DNA of 31,230 nucleotides from a virus (IMGVR_UViG_3300017766_001325:1-31230), one strand, 5' to 3'. Counted from the first letter of the stretch, positions 3,724 through 24,526 are shown. The notes: a model not told the origin generated them from the letters alone. Made by a program: numbers and translations.

Positions 3724-3751
3724 GGGCCGGGAGGAGAAATCCTCCCGGCCT
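3724..3751 (+). promoter_or_regulatory. GC-rich stem-loop with GAAA tetraloop (attenuator or mRNA stabiliser; no U tract)
   Basis: GGCCGGGAGGA-GAAA-TCCTCCCGGCC, a perfect 11-bp stem. Confidence 0.7.
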
Positions 3752-4219: not shown

Positions 4220-4244
4220 GGGGAGGCGGCAAATCCGCCTCCCC
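4220..4244 (+). terminator. Probable terminator/stabiliser hairpin ending the capsid transcript
   Basis: GGGGAGGCGG-CAAAT-CCGCCTCCCC followed by TCTAT. Confidence 0.55.
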
Positions 4245-13506: not shown

Positions 13507-14892
13507 ATGGCATTTACCTACACAGGCACGGATGGACTCTTCCCGCGACTCGGTGCGCTTGTCTACATGATGGATCAAGTTCGAGCGCATCAGAACAATC
13601 TGAAGACGCTCCTTGCCAACGTGCAGGCTGAGTACTCGTCGACTGATGCTTGGATGATCGACGTTCTTTCCGGCAATATCGAAGCGCGAATCGCGGAAGC
13701 GGGAAACGTTCTGAACGACGTACGCTCAGCGGCAGAGCGAACGATTCTTGAGATGTGCTTCGATGAAGCGAGCGATCCGGCGGCAACGAACACAATGGTT
13801 CGGAAGGACATCCGCGACGCTCTCATCTGGCTGATTCGTCAGATGGATGTCGACATTCAATCAATCGACGGAACGACGATTACGAAGTCAAGTCTGTCGG
13901 TCGGAGGATCGAACAACGGCAACGGAAAGTTTTACTACCTCTTCGAGGCTCCGAACATTCTCCTCGGATCGACTGCCGACTGGCCGAACATTCGCACGGA
14001 AGTTCTCGAAGCGCGATGCATTCAAGACGCAACGTCCGGCGCGATCTCGCGAGGCTCTGAGATCTTCGAGATTCGAGGACAGCCTTCGTACCAAGGCCTT
14101 GACTACCGATTCCCCGGCGGAAGTGGAACGCTCATGCGTTTGACGACTGCTTGCGCGAGCGTCGACAACGGAATCCCCGGACAGAACATCCTCCACAATT
14201 CCGACTTCGAGGATCAGACTTCGAATCTTTCTGATCGATTCACGGTCGTGAGCGGAGCAGCAGGCACAGAGTTTCTCACGGAGACGACGACGGCGAATGT
14301 CTTCCGAGGATCGAGCGCGATCAAACTCGCGGTCACGGGATCGACGTTCAATATCCGCCAGAGGCTCGCAGACTTCGACGGAACTCTCGGAAGGCTCACG
14401 CCGGATCGACCGTACATCCTCGCCGTCGCAATCAAGAAGGACACAACCGCAACCGGGACGCTCCGCCTCTCGGTGAAGGACGGATCAGGAAATATCATTG
14501 ACGGCGGAAGTTTCTTGTTCTCGCAATCAATCGCGGCGACAACGACTTCGTATGCGATCTACGCGACACAGTTGCGCTCTCCGCGCATCGTGCCAAGCGA
14601 GTTATACTTTCACATCGAGACGACGACGGCGATCGCGACGGATGCCGTCTACATCGACGAGATCGTTCTCGCCGAGATGATGCCGATCGCGAATGGTGGG
14701 CCTTCGCTCGCGATCGTTGCAGGCTCAACGAACTGGAGCGCAGACGACAACGCTCGATACACATTCACGAACAACGGCGAGGGCGCGTTTGCTACGGCGT
14801 TCGATCGCTTGTTCGATATGTACGGGAAGGGCCTCAGCCTTCCCGCGAACTATCTAGGAACCGAGACGATCGCTGATTCTCTGATCGCCTGA
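13507..14892 (+). CDS. Putative structural protein with C-terminal carbohydrate-binding-like jelly-roll
   Basis: AAAGGAG RBS. NILHNSDFED...VYIDEIVL bracket is typical of CBM4/9-like folds. Confidence 0.6.
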   Translation: MAFTYTGTDGLFPRLGALVYMMDQVRAHQNNLKTLLANVQAEYSSTDAWMIDVLSGNIEARIAEAGNVLNDVRSAAERTILEMCFDEASDPAATNTMVRKDIRDALIWLIRQMDVDIQSIDGTTITKSSLSVGGSNNGNGKFYYLFEAPNILLGSTADWPNIRTEVLEARCIQDATSGAISRGSEIFEIRGQPSYQGLDYRFPGGSGTLMRLTTACASVDNGIPGQNILHNSDFEDQTSNLSDRFTVVSGAAGTEFLTETTTANVFRGSSAIKLAVTGSTFNIRQRLADFDGTLGRLTPDRPYILAVAIKKDTTATGTLRLSVKDGSGNIIDGGSFLFSQSIAATTTSYAIYATQLRSPRIVPSELYFHIETTTAIATDAVYIDEIVLAEMMPIANGGPSLAIVAGSTNWSADDNARYTFTNNGEGAFATAFDRLFDMYGKGLSLPANYLGTETIADSLIA

Positions 14893-15139
14893 TGAGATCT
14901 CCGAGGATCGCTGCTCGCGCTTGCGCGACGAGGAAGCGAAGATCGTCTTCCTCGGCGAGATCGACGGCGAGTGTGTAGAGGTCGAGGGCTTCCCAAGTCG
15001 GAGAGAGGATCGAGCGGCATCGGAGCGCGGCTCGATCGGAGTTGCCTCGCGTGACCGCGAAGGAAAGCACCGTCTCGACGTGTGCTTGGACGCGACGAGA
15101 TTCGAGTTTGTGCAGGCCTCTCGGATTTTTTCTCGACAT
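14834..15139 (-). CDS. Hypothetical helical protein; the only credible minus-strand gene
   Basis: Minus-frame codons are genome-typical (GCC CTC GAC CTC TAC ... GCC GTC GAT CTC GCC GAG). Fills the gap between the late and early modules. Start is uncertain. Confidence 0.65.
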   Translation of the reverse strand: MSRKNPRGLHKLESRRVQAHVETVLSFAVTRGNSDRAALRCRSILSPTWEALDLYTLAVDLAEEDDLRFLVAQARAAILGDLIRRSENQRSSRFLDSSREG

Positions 15140-15162
15140 CTCCTCAAATCTTCCGATATAGT
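15133..15162 (+). promoter_or_regulatory. Sigma70-like early promoter
   Basis: TCGACA-18 bp-TATAGT, preceded by a T tract, upstream of the annealing-protein gene. Confidence 0.6.
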
Positions 15163-15187
15163 GTCCGCAAGCGGACACGGTGTCCGC
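15161..15187. repeat. Triple alternating 8-mer GTGTCCGC/GCGGACAC/GTGTCCGC (operator and/or leader hairpin)
   Basis: GTGTCCGC-AA-GCGGACAC-G-GTGTCCGC, read directly from the sequence. Confidence 0.75.
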
Positions 15188-15204
15188 AGAATTTGGAGAC
15201 ACAA

Positions 15205-16089
15205 ATGACAGCCATGATCGTATCGGAGGCCGCGAAGTCGGCCAGTGGTCAACTCGCAATTGCAGGCACGAAGGCACTCGAGGCCTACATCGCCGCAGGC
15301 GACATCGGAAGGTTGAATCCAGATCAGCGCATCGCGCTCTATCGCGCCGTCTGCGATTCGATGGGGTTGAATCCCCTCACGCAACCATTTCAGTATCTGA
15401 CCCTGAGCGGGAAGACCGTGCTCTATGCAACCAAGAGTTGCACCGAGCAGTTGCGCTCGATTCACGGAGTTTCGGTGCTTCGAATGGAGCGCGAGATCAT
15501 CGGCGACATCCTGACCGTCACAGTCGCCGTGACCGAGCGAACAGGCCGAGAAGACATTAGCACAGGATCGGTGAGCCTCGCCGGATTGAAAGGCGAGAAC
15601 TTGAGCAATGCGTACATGAAATGCGAAACGAAGGCAAAGCGTCGCGCGACCTTGAGCATCTGCGGCCTTGCCGTCCTCGATGAAACCGAGGTCGACTCGA
15701 TCGCCGGAGCGCAGGCCGTCTCGGTGCAGGAGTTCCACTCTGAGCCAAAGAAGGCCTTGAAGCCAACGAAGGAAGAGCGCAGGAAGGATCTCGACGAACT
15801 CACGAATCCGACTCCGATCGCGAATCGAGTCGCCGAGCCGGAGACGGTCGCCGAAGACTGCATCACGATCATGGCTAGAAGCCCGATCGGGGTAGTCGAA
15901 GGGAAGTCAGGCCGTCGCGTCTGGCGCATCGATCAGGAAGATCAGCCGATGCCGATCGCGGTTCTCTCCGAAGAGATCGCCTCGGGACTGGAAGCGAATC
16001 AGGCCTTCAGCGTGAATACGCGCGTCCGCGTCAAGCCTCGCGCGAATGGTGGCTTCGAGGTCGTCGAGATCATCGGAGACGCTCCATGA
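15205..16089 (+). CDS. RecT/Bet-like single-strand annealing protein
   Basis: Contains GLNPLTQPF and MKCETKAKRRATLSICGL...DETE. RBS GGAGACACAAATG. Confidence 0.7.
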   Translation: MTAMIVSEAAKSASGQLAIAGTKALEAYIAAGDIGRLNPDQRIALYRAVCDSMGLNPLTQPFQYLTLSGKTVLYATKSCTEQLRSIHGVSVLRMEREIIGDILTVTVAVTERTGREDISTGSVSLAGLKGENLSNAYMKCETKAKRRATLSICGLAVLDETEVDSIAGAQAVSVQEFHSEPKKALKPTKEERRKDLDELTNPTPIANRVAEPETVAEDCITIMARSPIGVVEGKSGRRVWRIDQEDQPMPIAVLSEEIASGLEANQAFSVNTRVRVKPRANGGFEVVEIIGDAP

Positions 16090-16445
16090 GTGGCGAGATC
16101 GTCGGCTCGGCGAGCCTTCGATCGCAGATCGGGATCGCGGCGGAAGATCCGAAGATTTTCCGTCCGATCTCGGTCGCGGAGGCTCTGGATGTCGCGCGAA
16201 TCATCAAGGCGGATACGTCGATCGAGGAGGACATCCGCGACGTGATCGAGGTCGGGATTCCGCTCGATCTGATGCCTGCTCATCTCACGCCGAGAAAGGA
16301 GATTCTCGCCGAGGCTCTCCGCGTCTCGGTACGCACGATCCGCCGGAGAGAACTTGCTTGGGAACTTTGCGACCAGAGGATTCGATTCGATCTCGTGCAT
16401 CGAGCGAGTCGGCTCGTCTTCGCGAATCGCGGATCGCGTCTCTGA
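16086..16445 (+). CDS. Putative HTH DNA-binding protein
   Basis: Contains EILAEALRVSVRTIRRRE. Confidence 0.6.
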   Translation: MSGEIVGSASLRSQIGIAAEDPKIFRPISVAEALDVARIIKADTSIEEDIRDVIEVGIPLDLMPAHLTPRKEILAEALRVSVRTIRRRELAWELCDQRIRFDLVHRASRLVFANRGSRL

Positions 16446-16455
16446 ATCACTCGTC

Positions 16456-16489
16456 GAGCCTGCCGTGAGAAGTTCGCGGCAGGCTTTTT
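16456..16489 (+). terminator. Rho-independent terminator
   Basis: GAGCCTGCCGTGA-gaagt-TCGCGGCAGGCTT followed by a T run. Confidence 0.8.
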
Positions 16490-16689
16490 CACAATCTTCG
16501 GAAATTTCCAAGTTTCCCCTCTTTACAAATCGAAATCCCTCCCCCCTAATAACCCCCCACCCGAGCAAAGCGAAACAGATACGCACTCGGTGTTCCGGCT
16601 CGACTCCTTGCGTGTAACTCCTTCTCTCTTCTCTTCTGTGAACCGGAAGCGGAGTACGTCGGACGTGATTCACGAGATAGGCCGCGAAA

Positions 16690-16723
16690 CTCTGGAAGGA
16701 TCCAGAGAAAGAGAGACACAATG
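16690..16723 (+). promoter_or_regulatory. ANGGA-loop leader hairpin plus RBS
   Basis: CTCTGG-AAGGAT-CCAGAG then AGAGACACAATG. Confidence 0.6.
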
Positions 16724-17338
16724 AAATCGAAATCGAACGGAATGACGCGCGAGGAACTCGCCGGATTTACTGCGCGAGCGAACAAGTATTTCAAAGGCGA
16801 AACCGATCGCGAACTCTGGTCGCTCGCGCTTCCGCGCATCGCGGAGGAATCCGCCGAAGTGGCGATGGCCGCGCTTGAGAACTACTCGATTCAATGGGGA
16901 GGGCCGCGAGCGCGTTTCCTCCCTGCGAAGTTCTTCGAGTTCCTTGCCGACGTGAAAGTTCGCCGTCTCGAACTGACGCAGCGCGAGGCTCGCGAGCGTG
17001 AAGCGCGGATGCGCTCGATCGCGGCGAGTCGAGACGCGGCAGTTTGTGAGGCCGACTGGCTCTCGCGACGGCGCGAGATCGAGACTGCGAATCCGCTCGA
17101 AGTCGGAGAAGCGGTCGACTACCTTCGATCGCTCGGGTGGGGGAATCCGCCGGAAGCATTTGGTGCATGGAGCCGACCGTGGATTCTCGCCGTCTCGGAT
17201 CTCGTCTGCCGGAGGACGCTGGCCGGATACGATCGGGATCGGCAGGGATTCGAGGATCGCGACCGGAATCCGCTCCGGCCAGTCTCGGCGGCGACTTTCT
17301 ACCGTGAGGCCGGAAAGGCCGCAGGACGGCTCTCCTAG
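16721..17338 (+). CDS. Hypothetical protein, possibly replication-associated (helicase loader-like N-terminus)
   Basis: Good ORF and leader. The W...AMAALENY...FLPAKF pattern is only weakly suggestive. Confidence 0.55.
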   Translation: MKSKSNGMTREELAGFTARANKYFKGETDRELWSLALPRIAEESAEVAMAALENYSIQWGGPRARFLPAKFFEFLADVKVRRLELTQREAREREARMRSIAASRDAAVCEADWLSRRREIETANPLEVGEAVDYLRSLGWGNPPEAFGAWSRPWILAVSDLVCRRTLAGYDRDRQGFEDRDRNPLRPVSAATFYREAGKAAGRLS

Positions 17339-17471
17339 GCGTTTGTCCCGTCCGGAGGCCTTCCGAGGCCTGTCGCACTCCGATGCCCGTACGGGCCATT
17401 TCCCGCTCTCTGGATATACAGAGTCCCGATAACCTAGAATCTTGAGGAAATTTCGGAAATGCTCAAGCGAT

Positions 17472-17502
17472 TTGCTTGCGCGAGCCGAAATCTCTGTATA
17501 CT
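17472..17502 (+). promoter_or_regulatory. Sigma70-like early promoter
   Basis: -10 TATACT at 17497-17502. TTGCTT or TTGCGC are -35 candidates with non-ideal spacing. AT-richer upstream. Confidence 0.5.
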
Positions 17503-17509
17503 CATCGCA

Positions 17510-17548
17510 TCGAGGCACGGAGCCTCGAACACAAAGGAGACACAAATG
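17510..17548 (+). promoter_or_regulatory. ANGGA-loop hairpin plus SD (CsrA-type dual site)
   Basis: TCGAGGC-ACGGA-GCCTCGA then ACACAAAGGAGACACAAATG. Confidence 0.7.
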
Positions 17549-17752
17549 TTCAGCAATTCAGCCGATGAAATCGAGTTCGTTCGCGAAATCCTCCTCTCGA
17601 ATCTTTGCAAGGTCGTTTCCGATTCTCGCCTGTCTGAATTCAAGTCTTTCACACTCGAAGGCACATTTAGAAATCCGGAATCAGTCACTCTCTATTCGGA
17701 TCGCAATCCTGATCTTTTCGATGATGGTTTGCTGATTCGCTTCACTCGCTGA
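17546..17752 (+). CDS. Small early hypothetical protein (68 aa)
   Basis: Strong RBS, AT-richer DNA, stop codon is part of the following repeat. Confidence 0.75.
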   Translation: MFSNSADEIEFVREILLSNLCKVVSDSRLSEFKSFTLEGTFRNPESVTLYSDRNPDLFDDGLLIRFTR

Positions 17753-17802
17753 ACGACTCGGATCGGAGGAGCCTCTTCGGAGGCTCCTCGAATCTGAGCC
17801 GT
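17750..17802 (+). repeat. 53-nt structured intergenic repeat, copy 1
   Basis: TGAACGACTCGGATCG-GAGGAGCCTC-TTCG-GAGGCTCCTC-GAATCTGAGCCGT. Confidence 0.85.
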
Positions 17803-17810
17803 GAGCCAGA

Positions 17811-17849
17811 CTCGCGAATGGATCGCGAGGAACAAAGGAGACACAAATG
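17811..17849 (+). promoter_or_regulatory. ANGGA-loop hairpin plus SD (CsrA-type dual site)
   Basis: CTCGCGA-ATGGA-TCGCGAG then GAACAAAGGAGACACAAATG. Confidence 0.7.
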
Positions 17850-18269
17850 AGCGCATACATCGTTCCCGCAGAAACCATTCACGTCCTCGCCGCTTGGGCA
17901 AGCGTTTCGGAATCGCCTTTTGGTCTCAAGATGGCGAACGAAGCAAAGGCTCGCGAGGCCTGCCGCGTCCTCTTCGCGGAGAACGCGCGATCGGTCGGAC
18001 ATCGCTACTCCGAGACTCCGGCTGAAGTCTCGCCGGAGTTTCTGAACGCTGACTTCTCCTCGATCATCCAGAAGTATCGACCGGAACTTTGCCTCGCCGC
18101 TGCTCGCGGATATGAGTATCAAGCCTGCGAATGCAGCGACTACGAGACGACCGCCGCCGCGCATCTCGTCTCTCGCGCGATCAAGAACGCGAGCGAGCGT
18201 CTCTGCGAGATCGCCGGAATCGGATGCTGGACGGTCGGCGCGGATGAAATGGCACAAGCGAAGAAGTGA
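17847..18269 (+). CDS. Early hypothetical protein with YEYQACE motif
   Basis: Strong RBS. Contains ENARSV..RY and YEYQACECSDYE motifs. Confidence 0.8.
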   Translation: MSAYIVPAETIHVLAAWASVSESPFGLKMANEAKAREACRVLFAENARSVGHRYSETPAEVSPEFLNADFSSIIQKYRPELCLAAARGYEYQACECSDYETTAAAHLVSRAIKNASERLCEIAGIGCWTVGADEMAQAKK

Positions 18270-18319
18270 ACGACTCGGATCGGAGAGGCCTCGCGAGAGG
18301 CCTCTCGAATCCGCGCCGT
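18267..18319 (+). repeat. 53-nt structured intergenic repeat, copy 2
   Basis: TGAACGACTCGGATCG-GAGAGGCCTC-GCGA-GAGGCCTCTC-GAATCCGCGCCGT. Confidence 0.85.
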
Positions 18320-18328
18320 AGGCCGGAG

Positions 18329-18367
18329 CCTCGCACGGAGCGAGGAGCAGACAAGGAGACAGCCATG
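18329..18367 (+). promoter_or_regulatory. ANGGA-loop hairpin plus SD (CsrA-type dual site)
   Basis: CCTCGC-ACGGA-GCGAGG then AGCAGACAAGGAGACAGCCATG. Confidence 0.7.
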
Positions 18368-18619
18368 CAAGAAGAAACCGACATTAAAGAACTGACCGAC
18401 CTCGAACTCGATCTCGCGATCTACGCGATCAACGAACTCGTGCGCGAGCCTTACATTTGCCCGTATGGCGAGCATGCATGGCTCGATAAGCATTGTTCAG
18501 GATCGTGGATTCAGGAACTCGAACAGACTTCTTCGATCGAGATTCCTGCGTACTACACGCGAACTAAGCGTCCCGAGCAGATCAAGCGCGAATCGCTCAC
18601 GATCGGAGGCATGCGGTGA
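18365..18619 (+). CDS. Small acidic early hypothetical protein (84 aa)
   Basis: AAGGAG RBS; begins MQEETDIKEL. Confidence 0.75.
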   Translation: MQEETDIKELTDLELDLAIYAINELVREPYICPYGEHAWLDKHCSGSWIQELEQTSSIEIPAYYTRTKRPEQIKRESLTIGGMR

Positions 18620-18876
18620 GCGATACAAAAACCGAACTCGATCAGATTCTTCGATTGATTGAAAGCGAGACACAATCTCTCGCGAACTACGGAGGGAAGC
18701 CGTTCCATACGATCGGAAACGCGAGCGAACAAGCCGAACGGATACACGGCATGATTGACGTTTTCTCGATCATTCGGAACGGAACCAGATTCTCCGACGA
18801 ATCCGATTCGCTGCGGATAAACGTCACCGATGCGATCCGAGACGCTTTCGGAAGATTGACGGGAGTATTTCGATGA
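18616..18876 (+). CDS. Hypothetical protein
   Basis: GGAGG RBS, GTGA overlap. Confidence 0.7.
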   Translation: MSDTKTELDQILRLIESETQSLANYGGKPFHTIGNASEQAERIHGMIDVFSIIRNGTRFSDESDSLRINVTDAIRDAFGRLTGVFR

Positions 18877-19145
18877 GCGATCGACTTCAGAACACAATCG
18901 GCTCAGTTTGGGAAGACGTGCAAGATCTCGACTGGAGCGGATTCTTTCCGCTCTTCCAAGTGCGCCGCGCCGAACTGCTCGTCGTCGGATTGATCGAGGC
19001 CGATCACGAAGATCTTTCCGATCTCGTGCCGATCGCATATCGAAACGGCGAAGCCTGCGCTTGCCTCGCCGGAGATCAAGATGGATTCATGCTCGCGAGC
19101 GAATATCGCCTCTTCTTCGATCAGCAGACGGGAGGCGAGCAATGA
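18873..19145 (+). CDS. Hypothetical acidic protein
   Basis: GGGAG RBS, ATGA overlap. Confidence 0.7.
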   Translation: MSDRLQNTIGSVWEDVQDLDWSGFFPLFQVRRAELLVVGLIEADHEDLSDLVPIAYRNGEACACLAGDQDGFMLASEYRLFFDQQTGGEQ

Positions 19146-19285
19146 AAGATCTCATCGTCTGTCTCGCGTTCCTTTGGTACGTCGCGATCCTCGTTGGCAT
19201 CGTGATGATTGAATATCGACTCTCGCGAATCGCGAAGCGCATCGATGAAATCGAGCGCGAAGACAGAAAGCGAGGTATTCGATGA
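19142..19285 (+). CDS. Small membrane protein (47 aa)
   Basis: GGAGG RBS. Hydrophobic LIVCLAFLWYVAILVGIVMI followed by a charged tail. Confidence 0.65.
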   Translation: MKDLIVCLAFLWYVAILVGIVMIEYRLSRIAKRIDEIEREDRKRGIR

Positions 19286-19683
19286 CCTCGTTCCTCCTCT
19301 CTACTCTCCTCCTCATCGCTCCACCGAAAGGCACGGACACGCGAGCGATCCTCGATGCGATTCGCACCGTCGAGACTGGCGGCGAGGCCGATCCTGATCG
19401 AGCCATCGGCGACAAAGGCAAGGCTCTCGGCGCGTATCAAATCCATCGAGGCTACTGGCTCGATGCGACGGAGAAAGATCCTGCGCTTCGCGCTCTCGGA
19501 TACGAGAGCGTGACGGATCGAGCCATCGCCGAGCGCGTCGTCCTCGCGTATCTCACGCGATACGCGCCGGACTGGAAACTCGAAACCGTCGCGCGGATCC
19601 ACAATGGAGGCCCAAAGGGCCATCGGAAAGAAAGTACACTTGACTACGCTCGCAGGGTGCGAGCAGCAATGGAGACACAATGA
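19282..19683 (+). CDS. Lysozyme-superfamily muramidase/transglycosylase (i-type/destabilase-like) with signal peptide
   Basis: Contains AIRTVETGG (catalytic Glu), GAYQIH..YW.DA and ARIHNGGP.G. Hydrophobic N-terminus. Confidence 0.85.
   Translation: MTSFLLSTLLLIAPPKGTDTRAILDAIRTVETGGEADPDRAIGDKGKALGAYQIHRGYWLDATEKDPALRALGYESVTDRAIAERVVLAYLTRYAPDWKLETVARIHNGGPKGHRKESTLDYARRVRAAMETQ
19648..19682 (+). promoter_or_regulatory. ANGGT-loop variant leader hairpin plus RBS
   Basis: GCTCGC-AGGGT-GCGAGC then AGCAATGGAGACACAATG. Confidence 0.5.
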
Positions 19684-20204
19684 ATCGAACCATCTATGAC
19701 ATCAGCGCGGATCTTGCCGCGCTCGAAACGATCCTCCATGAGAACGGAGGCGACGTATCAGATCCGCAGGCACAGGCCGCGCTCGCAGAGTGGGAACGCG
19801 AACTCGAAAGCGATCTCACAGGAAAGGTCGACCGATACTGCTCGCTCATCGCAGAACTTGAAGCGCGATCGGCAATGCGACAGGCAGAGGCCGAGCGTCT
19901 CGCGGATCTCGCGAAGGCCGACGACAAAGCAGCGCAAGGCCTGCGCGAGCGTCTGCGATTCATTTGGGAAACTCGAAATCTCCCGAAGATCGAAACGTCT
20001 CGCTTCCGAGTCGCACTCACGCGCAACGGCGGAAAGGCTCCGCTCGATCTCCGAGTCGGGCCGGAAGAGTTGCCAGAGTGGGCCATCGAACGGAAGACGA
20101 TTGTGACGGCAAACAAGGACGCGATCCGCGCTCGGCTCGAAGCAGGCGAGAATCTGCCGTTCGCGAATCTCATGGAACGAGGAACGAGGATTTCGATCAA
20201 ATGA
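19680..20204 (+). CDS. Siphovirus Gp157-family protein
   Basis: Contains TIYDI...KVDRY...EAERL...ANKDAIRARLEAGE...A.L...ISIK. Confidence 0.85.
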   Translation: MNRTIYDISADLAALETILHENGGDVSDPQAQAALAEWERELESDLTGKVDRYCSLIAELEARSAMRQAEAERLADLAKADDKAAQGLRERLRFIWETRNLPKIETSRFRVALTRNGGKAPLDLRVGPEELPEWAIERKTIVTANKDAIRARLEAGENLPFANLMERGTRISIK

Positions 20205-20422
20205 ATCGGCCCTATCTCTCGAAGCGAGTTCGCGAAGGCCTCGAATCGATTCTCTCGCGCTCGATCGCGACGACCGAGGAAGATCTCGTCGCGATGCAAT
20301 GGATTCGCGGAATGCTCGATCGCGCTGCTATCATCGCCAGTCCGAAAGCGCAGGACGCGCCGTCTCCTCGGATGGGAGGGAGCAGCAATGCTCCCTCCCA
20401 AGGAGAGGAGGCCATCGTATGA
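20201..20422 (+). CDS. Hypothetical protein
   Basis: GAGG RBS, ATGA overlaps on both sides. Confidence 0.6.
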   Translation: MNRPYLSKRVREGLESILSRSIATTEEDLVAMQWIRGMLDRAAIIASPKAQDAPSPRMGGSSNAPSQGEEAIV

Positions 20423-20622
20423 AACAACCGATCGACAAACCGTCGCACTTTGGCCGCGTCATCCGGCAAGCCTACGAAGGCGATCGGATCTGGCTCATCG
20501 CCGAGAACGGCGAGGATCTCGGATTCCTCGAAATGAAGCGCGTACCGAAAGACTTGAAAATCACAGTCGCGCTTTGCTTTGATCGATCGATTCGCATCGA
20601 GCGCAGAGAGGAGGAGCGATGA
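20419..20622 (+). CDS. Divergent CsrA/RsmA-like small RNA-binding protein (putative)
   Basis: 67 aa. EGDRIWL aligns by eye with CsrA VGETLMI, and ITVALCFDRSIRIERRE with VRIGVNAPKEVSVHREE, including the R44 and E46 equivalents. Strong RBS. Confidence 0.5.
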   Translation: MKQPIDKPSHFGRVIRQAYEGDRIWLIAENGEDLGFLEMKRVPKDLKITVALCFDRSIRIERREEER

Positions 20623-20972
20623 GGCATGATCCGATGATGCGAGCCGGAAACGCTCCGCCGCCGGAAGGCTCGCTCTTCTCTCTCGGGATGCACAGAACCA
20701 ACGATCGCGAGACTTCGATCGAGGCCGCGAAGCGAGCATCACCGCGAGCAGGAAGCGGACGCGCTCTCGCGCTCGAAGCATTGCGAAACAATCCAGACGG
20801 CCTCACGGACGAGGAACTCGCGAGCGTAACCAAACAATACATGAACTCAATCGGCAAACGCCGAACGGAACTCACACAGGCCGGATTCATCGAGGACAGC
20901 GGCATTCGGCGGATGTCGTCGAGAGGCTCGATGATGATCGTCTGGCGGATTAAGAAGGAGGCAACGACATGA
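20619..20972 (+). CDS. Winged-HTH DNA-binding protein
   Basis: Contains GLTDEELA...KRRTEL...G.IEDSG.RR....G....VW. Confidence 0.8.
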   Translation: MRHDPMMRAGNAPPPEGSLFSLGMHRTNDRETSIEAAKRASPRAGSGRALALEALRNNPDGLTDEELASVTKQYMNSIGKRRTELTQAGFIEDSGIRRMSSRGSMMIVWRIKKEATT

Positions 20973-21274
20973 AGGAATTCGAGCGCATCGAGAAGCGGTT
21001 CAAGGAACTTCGAAACTGGCTTCTCGAACTTCAATCGGAAGATCCTCACGCTGATCGAGACGACGAGCACGACTCGCACAATCTAGGCCTCATCGACTTG
21101 CATGAGATCAAACTTGCTTTCTTTGCTCTAGCGCAGGAGCGAGATCGACTCCGCGCCGAACGCGACGATGCGCGGCAAAGGCTTTGCAAGGTTGTCGGAG
21201 ACAATCGCGATATGTGGGGCGAAGATGTCGCAAAGGAATACGGCTGGGACTGCTTCAAGGAGGCGACCGGATGA
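20969..21274 (+). CDS. Hypothetical coiled-coil protein
   Basis: AGGAGG RBS. Contains LRAERDDAR and YGWDCFK. Confidence 0.7.
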   Translation: MKEFERIEKRFKELRNWLLELQSEDPHADRDDEHDSHNLGLIDLHEIKLAFFALAQERDRLRAERDDARQRLCKVVGDNRDMWGEDVAKEYGWDCFKEATG

Positions 21275-21432
21275 CCGTCGTCAAACCGAAACCGTCGCAT
21301 CCTTGGAACTCTCATATCTCGATCGAGACTCGCATCGCGCGAATCCGAGAAGAGATCGAGAAACTGCGCGAGGAGATCAAAGCGAAGACGGCGGACATCC
21401 GCGAACTTCAGGCGAGGAGGATGCAGAAGTGA
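21271..21432 (+). CDS. Small coiled-coil hypothetical protein
   Basis: AGGAGG RBS; begins MTVVKPKPSHPW. Confidence 0.65.
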   Translation: MTVVKPKPSHPWNSHISIETRIARIREEIEKLREEIKAKTADIRELQARRMQK

Positions 21433-21722
21433 CGCACGAAGAATACATCGCGCAACTCGAAGCCATCAGCGAGGCGCAACTCCCTTCGGCTCAAACGATG
21501 GAATGCCAACTCGCGCTCTCTTTCGTTATGTATCTCCAGAAATTCGAGGCATACGAAACAAGAACGGCTCAAAGACTCATCCTCGACATTCTGGAGAAGA
21601 ACAACGTCAGAATCGTTCGAGAAGTACCACCACATCCAGATGAGCCTTTGGCTTCCGTGTATCGCGTCAATCAAGAACTGAAGCGTCGCGGATGGATTCC
21701 AGAATCAAAGGAGGCCAAATGA
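21429..21722 (+). CDS. Hypothetical protein
   Basis: GGAGG RBS, GTGA overlap. Confidence 0.65.
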   Translation: MTHEEYIAQLEAISEAQLPSAQTMECQLALSFVMYLQKFEAYETRTAQRLILDILEKNNVRIVREVPPHPDEPLASVYRVNQELKRRGWIPESKEAK

Positions 21723-21982
21723 GGACGCAAGCCACACTCTCCAGAGGACGAAACAGCGATGACATGGAAAGCAAAGAAGACATCGAAGGTCTCATCCTCC
21801 AACTTGCCGAACTCCGGCGGCGGAACTTCACGCTCGTCCGCGAAGCGAACGTCCTCCGGCGAGAAGTTCACGCATGGAGGAAATGGCGCGAGAACAACGA
21901 CCCGAGCCTCTGGACGCACGTCGTCCGCGCTCGCCGCGCAACCGACGCGGCAGGCGCGTTCCGATGCGTCGATGACTCCTGA
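21719..21982 (+). CDS. Hypothetical protein
   Basis: AAGGAGG RBS, ATGA overlap. Confidence 0.6.
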   Translation: MRTQATLSRGRNSDDMESKEDIEGLILQLAELRRRNFTLVREANVLRREVHAWRKWRENNDPSLWTHVVRARRATDAAGAFRCVDDS

Positions 21983-22337
21983 TGGAATGACGATCCGGAT
22001 CGTCCTTCCGCTTCCGGCAAGGCAACTCTCGCCAAATGCTCGCGTGTGTTGGCAGGCGAAGGCGCGAGCCGTCAAGCAGTACCGCTCGATCTCCTTCTTC
22101 GTCTCGCAGCGTTTCCCGAGCCGATGGAAGGCCGCCGAGGTTGAGTCGACGTTCTTCTTCCGCGATCGGCGACGGCGTGACCGGGACAATCTCCTCGCCT
22201 CGCTCAAGGCCGCATTCGACGGAATCGCCTCGGCAGGAATCGTCGACGACGACGCGAATCTCACGCATCTTCCCGTACGGCTCGAAGTCGACCGAGACGC
22301 GCCGAGAGTCGAGATCTCGATCAGGAGGACGGAATGA
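21972..22337 (+). CDS. RusA-like Holliday junction resolvase
   Basis: Contains LPLP...SPN, RRRDRDNLLASLKAAFDG...GIVDDD and PRVEISI. Confidence 0.85.
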   Translation: MTPDGMTIRIVLPLPARQLSPNARVCWQAKARAVKQYRSISFFVSQRFPSRWKAAEVESTFFFRDRRRRDRDNLLASLKAAFDGIASAGIVDDDANLTHLPVRLEVDRDAPRVEISIRRTE

Positions 22338-22474
22338 ACGACGGACTAGATGAAATGCACAGCGATCGGCACGAGGGCTTCTGGCCGGATTTGAAAGAAA
22401 TCCTCGCGGCCTTTACCCTCTGGCTCATTGTCATGCTCCTGCTATCGTTCTCCCTCGCAGGATGCCTCTCGTAA
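22334..22474 (+). CDS. Small membrane protein (46 aa)
   Basis: AGGAGG RBS. Hand translation: MNDGLDEMHSDRHEGFWPDLKEILAAFTLWLIVMLLLSFSLAGCLS. Confidence 0.55.
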   Translation: MNDGLDEMHSDRHEGFWPDLKEILAAFTLWLIVMLLLSFSLAGCLS

Positions 22475-22514
22475 CCAACTCCCGCGTCGATCCGCCTCTG
22501 GTCGATGCGTCTCC

Positions 22515-22550
22515 GGCTCGCCGTTCGCGCTGAACGGCGAGTCTCTTTTT
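22515..22550 (+). terminator. Rho-independent terminator ending the early/middle operon
   Basis: GGCTCGCCGTTC-gcgct-GAACGGCGAGTC then TCTTTTT. Confidence 0.8.
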
Positions 22551-22609
22551 GATCGTGCAACAAAAGGAGCGGACGCGAGTCGAAACGCGCCGATGCCGAT
22601 CTTCGAAGC

Positions 22610-22882
22610 ATGGCGGAAGGCACACAGAAGAACGTCCTCTCGACGGCGATCGGCATCGGCCAGATCGCGACGATGATCGTCGGATTCTCCGCGCTCATCT
22701 TCACGGTCGGCGCGAAATCCAAGGAACTTGAAGTCGCACGAACCGACATCGACAAACTCGCGGAGACGGTGCAGGATCTCGCGAAGGCGCAGGCCTCTGC
22801 GGCGGTGAATGACGCAAGCCACTCCCGAACACTCGAAGACATCCAACGGCGACTAGAATCGCTCGAAAGGCGGATCAAATGA
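22610..22882 (+). CDS. Membrane-anchored coiled-coil protein (lysis cluster)
   Basis: One transmembrane segment followed by a heptad pattern. Confidence 0.65.
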   Translation: MAEGTQKNVLSTAIGIGQIATMIVGFSALIFTVGAKSKELEVARTDIDKLAETVQDLAKAQASAAVNDASHSRTLEDIQRRLESLERRIK

Positions 22883-23082
22883 GCAAGGCTTCATGGCGGA
22901 CGACGACGACGGGCATCCTCGCGATCGTGGTCGCGATCGCAGGCGCGGCAAAGGCTGAGTTCGACGGCGATCCGGTCACGGTCGCAGACTGGGGCGCGGT
23001 CGCCGCCGCGATCATGGCAGGCATCGGCCTCATCCTCGCGCGAGACGCGAAGGTATCGTCACAGCAAGAAGGCATCCGATGA
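22879..23082 (+). CDS. Putative holin (2 TM)
   Basis: Contains SWRTTTTGILAIVVAI...WGAVAAAIMAGIGLILARD. Confidence 0.6.
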   Translation: MSKASWRTTTTGILAIVVAIAGAAKAEFDGDPVTVADWGAVAAAIMAGIGLILARDAKVSSQQEGIR

Positions 23083-23288
23083 TCGATTTGGAGCAGACGC
23101 TCGCCGTCGCGCTCGAATACAGAGAGAGGCTCGCTCGCGCGACTGACTCGCCGTCGCGACTCCGTGTCCTCTCCGATGCTCCGCTCTTCTCTCTGTGGCA
23201 CGAAGTGCGAAACGAACTCAAGACGGCGGCGGATGAGATCGAATCGCTTCGCGCTCGCATCCGCGCTCTGGAAGGTGAAGATGCTTGA
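23079..23288 (+). CDS. Hypothetical protein
   Basis: Coupled ORF with an AADEIESLR motif. Confidence 0.6.
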   Translation: MIDLEQTLAVALEYRERLARATDSPSRLRVLSDAPLFSLWHEVRNELKTAADEIESLRARIRALEGEDA

Positions 23289-23448
23289 GTTCATCACGTC
23301 ACTCATCGTCGCGATCCTCCTCTGGATCGAGAAGCGATTCGACAAAGGAAAGAATGCAACCGATGGTCAAGAAGATCCTGATTCTCTCACTCGTGCAGGC
23401 AAGCGTATTTCTGACGGCCTGCGGCCCAAGGACGGTACTCGTCCGTGA
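23281..23448 (+). CDS. Putative i-spanin-like membrane protein (55 aa)
   Basis: MLEFITSLIVAILLWIEK transmembrane segment. Overlaps a lipoprotein gene in another frame. Confidence 0.5.
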   Translation: MLEFITSLIVAILLWIEKRFDKGKNATDGQEDPDSLTRAGKRISDGLRPKDGTRP

Positions 23449-23587
23449 GTCGTCGCCGATTCGAATCGGGCCGGAGGTGAAAGGCCATGTCTACATTCGC
23501 GAGAATGGCGAGTGGACACTCTCCGCGAATCGCGTCGAGATCCCCGAAGGCTACTATCTCGTTCCTCCTTCCTATGTCGACGAATAA
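23363..23587 (+). CDS. Lipoprotein, putative o-spanin-like
   Basis: MVKKILILSLVQASVFLTAC signal peptide with lipobox. Start is embedded in the previous gene. Confidence 0.6.
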   Translation: MVKKILILSLVQASVFLTACGPRTVLVRESSPIRIGPEVKGHVYIRENGEWTLSANRVEIPEGYYLVPPSYVDE

Positions 23588-23828
23588 AGCGAAGTCGCGC
23601 ATTCAGCCTCCGCTCTCGATCGAGGGCGAGATGAATGTCCCTTGGATGACGACGGGACAAGTCGCTGCACGTCTCGGAGTTTCGATGAGAACCGTCTCGA
23701 AGTGGATCGACAACGGAATCCTTCGAGGGATTCGAATCCCGTTCTCGAAGGATCGCCGAGTTCATCCGCAGGCTCTCGTCGAGTTTGAGAAGTTGCACGG
23801 ATTCGATCGAGCGCGAGGCAAGCAATGA
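23574..23828 (+). CDS. MerR/excisionase-type HTH (HTH_17) protein
   Basis: Contains MTTGQVAARLGVSMRTVSKWIDNGILRGIRIP..KDRRV. Confidence 0.85.
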   Translation: MSTNKAKSRIQPPLSIEGEMNVPWMTTGQVAARLGVSMRTVSKWIDNGILRGIRIPFSKDRRVHPQALVEFEKLHGFDRARGKQ

Positions 23829-24526
23829 ATCGAATCATTCCGATCGAGCCAGATCACGACGACCCTCGCGCGTTCATCGTGCAGGCTTCAGATATGGCCG
23901 TCGTCTCGCCTTTCGCGTCGGCGACTTCTGGAACCGGAGCCTCCGTCGCTTTCACTTCCGTCCTCGGCGCGATCGGCGCAGTCTCGGGCAGATACGGAAT
24001 TGCATCGCTCGCGACCGGAACGACGACGACAGGACGCGCACAAATCCAGACTTCGGTCATCGACCAGATCCTCTTCGGATTCGGTCGGATCTCGATGTCT
24101 GCGATGATCCTCACGCCGTCCTCTCTCTCGGATGGCACGAATCGCTACGGCCTCAAGATCGGATTCGGCAATCAGACGACGCTCATCACGGAAGCCTGCG
24201 GAGGAGTTTTTCGATATCGAGACAACATCAACTCCGGCAAGTGGGAAGTCTACGTCGTCGACTCTTCGTCGACTTTGACGCAGGTAGATACGGGAGTGAC
24301 GGTCGCCGCGTCGACGTGGTATCGACTTGAGATCATCATCAATCCGGCGGCCTCGATCTCAGAGTTCTTTATCAACGGCGTGAGAGTCGCGACCGTGACC
24401 GCGAATCTTCAGAGCGGAACGTCGATCACCGCAGGACTTCTCGCGATGATAATCAAATCGCTCGGGACGACATCGAGAACTTTCTATATCGACAGCCTCG
24501 AATTCAGACAGGAAGTGAATCGATGA
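23825..24526 (+). CDS. Putative virion protein with ConA/lectin-like beta sandwich
   Basis: Ser/Thr/Gly-rich. Contains DTGVTVAASTWYRLEI...FFINGV.VAT and FYIDSLEF. Confidence 0.6.
   Translation: MNRIIPIEPDHDDPRAFIVQASDMAVVSPFASATSGTGASVAFTSVLGAIGAVSGRYGIASLATGTTTTGRAQIQTSVIDQILFGFGRISMSAMILTPSSLSDGTNRYGLKIGFGNQTTLITEACGGVFRYRDNINSGKWEVYVVDSSSTLTQVDTGVTVAASTWYRLEIIINPAASISEFFINGVRVATVTANLQSGTSITAGLLAMIIKSLGTTSRTFYIDSLEFRQEVNR

Follow-up and report, generated by a model that had tools for sequence, protein, structure and literature searches.

Which protein, if any, reads the small hairpins that stand in front of the early genes of the virus IMGVR_UViG_3300017766_001325? The window analyzed here, the whole stretch of 31,230 nucleotides (nt), is a 31-kb siphophage record, complete and with direct repeats at its termini. 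An initial annotation had pointed to six leader hairpins with ANGG(A/T) loops and to an open reading frame (ORF) at 20419-20622 that might encode a CsrA-like protein, and it read the combination as a phage translational regulon. The GGA specificity of the CsrA family is treated as a constant of that family. We computed the sites, their restriction to early leaders, the covariation of their stems, the loop consensus, the self-leader of the csrA-like gene and the kinship of its product to a paralogue in Phycisphaerae, the presumed host class. Judged by these comparisons, the sites of the phage family are, as a class, not canonical A(N)GGAX; there is a real family-wide leader element, and with it a divergent phage CsrA with a conserved self-leader.

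All six stem-loops of the initial annotation lie where it placed them and have the sequences it gave:

15133..15162, + strand: sigma70-like early promoter TCGACA-18-TATAGT, which puts hairpin 1 at the predicted transcript 5' end
15171..15187, + strand: leader hairpin 1, GCGGAC-ACGGT-GTCCGC, before ORF 15205-16089 (294 aa, no family match)
16690..16707, + strand: leader hairpin 2, 7-bp stem and AGGA tetraloop, before ORF 16721-17338 (205 aa, no family match)
17510..17528, + strand: leader hairpin 3, TCGAGGC-ACGGA-GCCTCGA, before the variable cassette gene 17546-17752
17811..17829, + strand: leader hairpin 4, CTCGCGA-ATGGA-TCGCGAG, before cassette gene 17847-18269
18329..18345, + strand: leader hairpin 5, CCTCGC-ACGGA-GCGAGG, before ORF 18365-18619
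19648..19664, + strand: leader hairpin 6, GCTCGC-AGGGT-GCGAGC, within the 3' end of the 19282-19683 gene and before gp157

Pentaloops of the form ANGG[AT] closed by a Watson-Crick stem of at least 4 bp occur five times genome-wide on both strands, all of them on the + strand before GAGAC..ATG, and the hairpin at 16690 is the sole ANGGAN in the genome with a stem of at least 6. The suspected enrichment was found, with a strict count of six versus a mean of 0.3 and a maximum of 2 in 200 dinucleotide shuffles, for a pattern picked post hoc, after the sites had been seen. The distances of 17, 17 and 18 nt between the loop GGA and the Shine-Dalgarno (SD) GGA at three sites were also verified. Other details had to be revised. 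The loop at 16690, given as AAGGAT, is really an AGGA tetraloop closed by an A-U pair, where 11 of 11 close relatives have C-G, and its ribosome-binding site (RBS) has no GGA. For the ANGGT loops, the passing suggestion of an altered specificity is closer to the data than the two-GGA model; close relatives have ACGGC in 3 of 9 cases and AAGGC in 6 of 12, and position 5 is thus free, not a T variant. The six sites are real, but 17811 and 18329 do not count as independent, both lying in two copies of one intergenic cassette. A seventh site at 20348, GCGC-AGGAC-GCGC, had been overlooked; it belongs to the csrA-like gene's own leader. The loop GGA is present at five of the seven window sites (17510, 17811, 18329, 16690 and 20348) and absent from 15171 and 19648. 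As a separate observation, GTGTCCG is duplicated flanking the 5' arm of hairpin 1 (window 15161-15187), the upstream copy directly after the -10 box, and GTCCGC likewise follows -10 boxes in distant relatives of the phage.

The wider distribution of the element was assessed in a viral-contig scan in which stem and RBS were fixed and the loop was left open. This returned 76 loci, 34 of them without any protein in common with the window. The family set (n=28) consists of 19 related loci, about one per lineage after overlaps and near-duplicates were dropped, and nine records found by protein homology, including the window; one of the 19, L156, has only gp157 in common with it. A loop-blind scan of the 28 records gave 136 hairpin-led starts, namely 106 with ANGR loops (R, purine) and, with different loops, 14 early and 16 other starts. 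All 106 ANGR leaders precede early genes (102 were scored early, and four in G001 were mis-binned by its start point), and none of the 16 non-early hairpin leaders has an ANGR loop. Thus, in these records the ANGR hairpins are confined to early leaders, as a regulon of early genes had led the initial annotation to expect.

Among 111 unique early leaders, 99 are ANGR. In the pentaloops (n=78) the first position is A in 77, the third is G in 77, the fourth is a purine in 77 and the fifth is never G; 21 of 25 tetraloops are ANGA. The loops of 55 of the 99 unique ANGR leaders have no GGA (44 have it), and GGA is not supported as the conserved determinant; the invariant is A-N-G-R(-H), with H any base but G. 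Bridging between two GGAs, which had been put forward as the mechanism, is not supported as a general one either, as 40 of the 99 RBSs lack GGA and its occurrence there is uncorrelated with that in the loop (Fisher p=0.54); sequence co-variation between loop and RBS was rejected on the same value. The loop starts 12-22 nt before GAGAY (Y, pyrimidine), and in 62 of the 99 leaders the distance is 15-17 nt. AGAAAG in the leader matches the end of the 16S RNA of the host class, and because that RNA ends in CCUCCUUUCUA in 18 of 20 loci we regard the AGAA that follows the stem as part of an extended SD. GAGAC as a motif exclusive to the regulon was rejected, given this match and two late genes that have GAGAC without a hairpin.

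That the paired structure itself is maintained is evident from its variation. When orthologues of ORF 16721 were chosen by protein homology, the hairpin was found in 20 of the 23 with a printed start, with many different stems (two further, weak orthologues printed no start and are outside the 23). The covariation in relatives that the initial annotation had named as a check was observed, stems varying with compensatory change while pairing is kept; hairpin 3, for instance, is TCGAGGA/TCCTCGA in L005 and TCAAGGC/GCCTTGG in L004, and L001 has a G-U variant. The 14 non-Watson-Crick stem pairs include nine G-U versus one C-A, which argues that the hairpin acts in the mRNA sense. A double-stranded DNA operator and an antisense or single-stranded DNA hairpin were rejected on this bias, on the 26 different 5' arms and on loop lengths of either 4 or 5. 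A search of window positions 14500-24000 against Rfam 15 gave two matches only (E 0.74 and 3.9), far below gathering scores. A different kind of leader, GCGGC-A(A/T/G)C(G/T)A(A/G)-GCCGC with a hexaloop, was seen in five phage contigs of 11-137 kb that are unrelated to the window (L152, L165, L167, L181 and L197), in each case before a gene of about 90-110 aa from one common family.

The seventh site belongs to a more elaborate arrangement at the end of the early region:

19680..20204, + strand: Sipho_Gp157/Mu Gam-like gene (PF05565, E 2.5e-26; phrog_253), its stop overlapping the start of ORF 20201
20201..20422, + strand: 73-aa ORF running through the csrA-like leader, its TGA overlapping the csrA-like ATG
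20348..20360, + strand: hairpin 7, GCGC-AGGAC-GCGC, candidate autoregulatory site; loop and GTCTC element in 27 of 28 homologues
20362..20369, + strand: anti-SD GTCTCCTC, predicted to pair with the SD at 20405-20412
20373..20400, + strand: 12-bp GC-rich hairpin inside the anti-SD/SD helix, differing in sequence between phages with its structure kept
20405..20412, + strand: SD of the csrA-like gene, with a predicted accessibility of 0.28, the lowest of seven RBSs tested
20419..20622, + strand: very probable divergent CsrA-family gene, 67 aa, with five predicted strands and no C-terminal helix

The elements of the self-leader follow one another in a fixed order: a stem of 4-6 bp that closes an ANGAH loop, a spacer of 1-7 nt, GTCTC, a long GC-rich stem unrelated in sequence, and GGAG. 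The predicted pairing partner of GTCTC is the SD or a copy of GGAGA just 5' of it. The homologue set comprises 24 records and four fragments, the single exception being L212. In 18 unique forms the outer pair is G-C in eight, C-G in eight, A-U in one and U-A in one, and 17 of the 18 have an ANGAH loop in which N is free (AGGAC, ACGAC or ATGAC). Since the spacers vary from 1 to 7 nt, a codon effect does not account for the element. In 1,141,088 nt the strict motif was matched 27 times, 26 of these in csrA-like leaders, and its occurring just once elsewhere in 1.1 Mb ties the loop to the csrA-like gene. RNAalifold returned three helices for 13 self-leaders; in the alignment 93.9% of cells are paired and five pairs show two-sided change (0-1 of 500 shuffles), figures inflated by relatedness and by a structure derived from the same alignment. 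The overlapping reading frames point to translational coupling from ORF 20201-20422 to the csrA-like gene. That the regulator's leader contains the site of its own regulon is the strongest reason to regard the phage protein as the reader. In G002, G012 and G015 (L025, L036 and L115) the CsrA-like ORF as called is extended in frame at its N-terminus, and the self-leader lies within this extension, which means either a mis-called start or a fusion of the upstream ORF. Eight further leaders (G001, G011, L064, L151, L162, L037, L038 and L047) have two GGAG elements after the long stem, and the anti-SD could accordingly pair with a decoy or with the true SD, a possible switch.

The identity of the protein (P0001) follows from its relatives. 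P0001 does not reach the curated cut-off of PF02599 (27 bits), and other members of its family stay under it as well, with 2 of 30 at best E 0.001 and 3 of 15 at E 0.001-0.009; the protein of L166/L212 reaches 25.5 bits. The Atlas had no usable match for P0001; for residues 35-94 of P0016 it gave, as a lead only, viral clusters in which 21% and 11% of the members carry PF02599 (score 0.84). In a blind search, a P0001-family profile was compared with 401 genomes from the class to which a Phycisphaerales metagenome-assembled genome belongs, an order that we place in the Phycisphaerae, and matched 54 of them at E<=0.05 (best 7e-6). Thirty matched loci were fetched, and 28 of these represent a single CsrA paralogue that shares with the phage protein a short insertion between strands 2 and 3; two examples score 53.8 and 51.0 bits on PF02599. 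HHalign of the phage family with this paralogue gave 95.6-96.9%; the alignment at 96.8% has a score of 51.6, compared with 12.0 for the reversed control and at most 19.1 in 40 column shuffles. The paralogue subfamily (L116-L145) occurs beside canonical CsrA in the host class, and a single literature search found no description of it. The AlphaFold2 monomer has strands at 11-18, 23-28, 33-38, 48-55 and 58-61, no terminal helix and a mean predicted local distance difference test score of 85.2. Foldseek and VIA-align listings for two monomer models do not include CsrA (best Z 3.8); monomer models say little about a strand-swapped dimer. Based on the profile kinship to the host paralogue, ORF 20419-20622 very probably encodes a divergent CsrA-family protein, as had been proposed. 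Of the 28 records, 24 have the gene, and in every case where its position and that of gp157 were mapped it lies downstream of gp157; three of the four records without it are fragments (21-59% complete) and the fourth is G419.

With CsrA the phage protein shares its small size, its five strands and an equivalent of R44, with which R62 of P0001 aligns, and it differs in lacking the C-terminal helix, in having Arg at position 4 (22/24 members) and in having Asp in place of Pro37 (21/24). RsmN/RsmF of Pseudomonas aeruginosa likewise lacks the C-terminal helix and has residues inserted between strands 2 and 3; its insert is about 16 residues long and helical and it still reads ANGGA, whereas the insert of the phage family is of about four residues and is common to the Phycisphaerae paralogue (PMC3791407). 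In RsmN the matching region contacts the two guanines (PMC3791407), which makes an altered reading of G by the phage protein plausible. Two narrower ideas fared poorly. Loss of R44 as a correlate of AAGA loops, suggested by G012, failed, since members without R44 have mixed loops and 22 of 42 forks of the tree are open; and a need for Asp at Pro37 in reading ANGA loops is weakened by L212 and L168, which retain Pro.

We favor, with confidence somewhat above even, the hypothesis that the phage CsrA-like protein binds A-N-G-R(-H) loops and represses translation of the early genes together with its own synthesis, a negative autoregulation. Early mRNAs would start at host sigma70-like promoters, with the hairpin near their 5' ends, and would at first be translated. 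Synthesis of the CsrA-like protein would come late within the early operon, its SD being sequestered and dependent on ribosomes that arrive by coupling from gp157 and ORF 20201. Once the dimer had accumulated, one face would hold an ANGR loop, and the bound protein would hinder the 30S subunit at the adjacent AGAAAG..GAGAC, possibly via a second contact there; on its own mRNA it would clamp the SD/anti-SD helix. Loss of the strict need for GGA would render the circuit partly independent of host CsrA and of host sponge RNAs. We chose repression since the geometry fits precedents of the hairpin-plus-SD (glgC), SD/anti-SD clamping (psl) and coupling (iraD) types (PMC7652899), and since an activator would be absent when the first genes are made. 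The glgC- and hcnA-type leaders of CsrA, RsmA and RsmE likewise have a short hairpin with a purine-rich loop just 5' of the SD, and the clade of the window resembles them further in its A(N)GGA penta- and tetraloops and its GGA spacing of 17-18 nt at three sites (PMC7652899, PMC4005645). The phage system differs from the canonical one in its invariant A-N-G-R(-H), in the frequent absence of a second GGA and in that protein and targets are both phage-encoded.

A number of observations weigh against this hypothesis. The lack of GGA in 40 of the 99 RBSs leaves a second contact site at the RBS conjectural. P0001 itself has no match at all in Pfam, PHROG or PDB sequences, and searches with its family profiles did not bring up CsrA for it either; HHalign against canonical host CsrA scores 12.1, not above the controls, and the kinship to CsrA is thus transitive, via a paralogue set that was chosen by the same P0001-family profile. 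Just 17 of 24 family members have the R44-equivalent Arg. Loop type does not visibly track the poorly resolved tree of the CsrA-like proteins. L212 combines ACGAT leaders and a more canonical CsrA with the lack of a self-leader. Three unrelated phages, G420, G421 and G422 (L180, L192 and L203; 81%, 70% and 91% complete), each have one ACGAW leader (W, A or T) before a 62-64 aa protein, and no credible CsrA was found in them; G419, which is 99% complete, has only a weak candidate (E about 0.1). The host class itself has CsrA in 135 of 151 genomes, often in two copies. Finally, the geometry equally suits activation, for which ymdA has its site just 5' of an SD-sequestering stem, or protection of the 5' end as in flhDC (PMC7652899).

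The last of these points leads to an unlikely alternative that nevertheless survives best, in which the CsrA-like protein is an activator of translation, or a protector of the 5' ends of early mRNAs, and by opening its own SD sets up a positive feedback. About half of the hairpins are at predicted 5' ends, as TANNNT lies 5-14 nt upstream of the stem in 54 of 106 family leaders compared with 264 of 8400 random positions. The hairpin also ends just 5' of the SD and leaves it open (the RBSs of three cassette genes are predicted to be unpaired at 0.73-0.75), and many RBSs have no second GGA. Yet expression of the first early genes would call for an activator that has not been made by then, unless it arrives packaged; one CsrA peptide is reported from the virion of phage JC1 (PMC9144972). 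The tight distance between loop and GAGAY is what would be expected of an operator, and the small hairpin of the self-leader does not compete with the anti-SD helix but is compatible with it, which also speaks against activation.

We consider it quite unlikely that canonical host CsrA or the Phycisphaerae paralogue reads the loops, with early expression following host physiology and the phage gene serving as a modulator or decoy. Such a reader would be at hand in most genomes of the host class, the mostly canonical A(N)GGA loops and 17-18 nt spacing of the window's clade would suit it, and the leader is also found in some unrelated phages in which no csrA was detected. However, canonical CsrA, with its A(N)GGAX site (PMC4005645), would have to read the 55 loops that lack GGA. 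The most conserved site is, moreover, that in the phage gene's own leader, where it varies among AGGAC, ACGAC and ATGAC, and the complete leader pattern was found in 0 of 301 host-class genomes.

The cassette array at 17.5-18.4 kb (17497-18365; relatives L001-L011) bears on a further alternative. It is hypervariable, with two or three small genes swapped behind conserved repeated leaders (10 of 13 close-relative records were parsable):

17497..17502, + strand: -10-like hexamer TATACT at the head of the cassette array, kept in close relatives and not flagged by the consensus scan
17753..17802, + strand: long imperfect intergenic hairpin, a cassette repeat (z=-4.5 for 17752-17867)
18270..18319, + strand: second copy of the long intergenic cassette hairpin, from sequence and folding

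PeSL cassettes of phages RB49 and phi1 are likewise units of promoter, stem-loop and SD flanking exchangeable small ORFans (PMC2839356), and the cassette region has this combination with a sigma70-like promoter. It is improbable, however, that the ANGR hairpin is just such a part, a 5' stabiliser or recombination handle whose loop is read by an unrelated factor or by none, the small ORF being uninvolved. The swapping of genes, the recurrence of a closing C-G pair (93 of the 99 unique ANGR leaders) and of the stem motif GCGGC agree with that idea; the monomer fold searches, which say little here, did not return CsrA. PeSL stems are, in contrast, poly-G/poly-C terminators at or within the promoter and have no fixed loop (PMC2839356), while the ANGR hairpins have a fixed loop and a stem of 4-7 bp, lie 3' of the -10 box, are followed by an A-rich SD and have no U tracts. 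The hairpin also stands before core genes and inside coding sequence (19648 and 20348), the G-U bias marks the mRNA strand, and the loop in the csrA-like leader of 27 of 28 homologues would be left unexplained. Perhaps it is the long hairpins at 17753 and 18270 that correspond to PeSLs, with the ANGR hairpin as an additional element; for these long hairpins, which have no U tract, we infer a terminator- or RNase III-like function. Their cleavage would put an ANGR hairpin at a new 5' end. That early mRNA is a sponge titrating host CsrA is very improbable, for in spite of several CsrA-type loops on abundant early transcripts there is one hairpin per start codon at a fixed distance, no tandem array, and more than half of the loops lack GGA.

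Returning to repression by the phage protein, the role proposed for it here resembles that of T4 RegA, a phage repressor of many pre-late mRNAs and of itself (discussed with gp32 and gp43 in PMC3014915). RegA differs in its unrelated fold and in its unstructured AU-rich sites over the AUG, whereas the site here is a structured loop 5' of the SD. Alleles of csrA are listed in 30 phages (PMC7366521), and gp47 of the Bcep22-like phage JC1 is another case (PMC9144972). These were found via PSI-BLAST or Pfam, with function left open and no targets described in the accessible text. The family of the window differs from them in falling under the Pfam cut-off and in having mappable candidate sites and a self-leader. 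Chromosomal csrA-tldR loci (PMC13418256) have no bearing on phage leaders.

Elsewhere the genome has HK97-type head genes (portal, protease and capsid) and genes for terminase, a methylase, RusA and gp157. Every annotated gene is on the + strand, and the window ORFs tested include no integrase. The region of the hairpins and the csrA-like gene is the early region, 3' of the tail genes. The host is probably a member of the Phycisphaerae. Among 14 loci with capsid relatives in bacterial genomes, 11 are assigned to Planctomycetota and 10 of these to Phycisphaerae, including two on megabase contigs with 43% identity. The other three bins (Rhodobacteraceae 80%, Terrimicrobiaceae 58% and Coriobacteriia 45%) include the two closest matches, and because the bins are mixed in this way the host class can only be inferred. 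These three are short contigs, and the two checked, L048 and L049, hold runs of window-family phage genes, which makes mis-binning possible. AGCT, presumably an AluI-type site, occurs 0 times in window positions 1-31230 versus about 81 expected; it is also absent from the relatives G005, G011, L162, L187, L198 and L220 and common in G001, G002 and G012. Its absence likely reflects avoidance of a host restriction site and could split the phage family by host. The destabilase/lysozyme-like gene at 19282-19683 (PF05497) has a hydrophobic N-terminus and sits in the early region, not in a lysis module. Strong GC hairpins without U tracts lie between late genes at 3725-3750 and 4220-4244.

A literature search, with most subscription papers outside its reach, turned up no publication on a phage CsrA regulon or on an ANGA specificity. 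We propose tentatively, at slightly short of even confidence, that a widespread family of planctomycete phages domesticated a host CsrA paralogue as an orthogonal reader of a one-G loop (ANGA/ANGAH) in place of GGA. It would serve as a self-limiting translational timer from early to late, with its own structurally conserved autoregulatory leader, and new early genes would enter the regulon by recombination behind an existing operator cassette. With the protein, the full set of its candidate operators, late leaders and host genomes as negative controls and a conserved self-leader all at hand, the function of phage CsrAs becomes directly testable with short RNAs and a 67-aa protein. As this CsrA lineage is invisible to Pfam and PHROG, such regulons are probably under-counted. 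A natural CsrA that accepts ANGA, if true, would illustrate how recognition through the backbone can be rewired, besides providing a translational repressor that is orthogonal.

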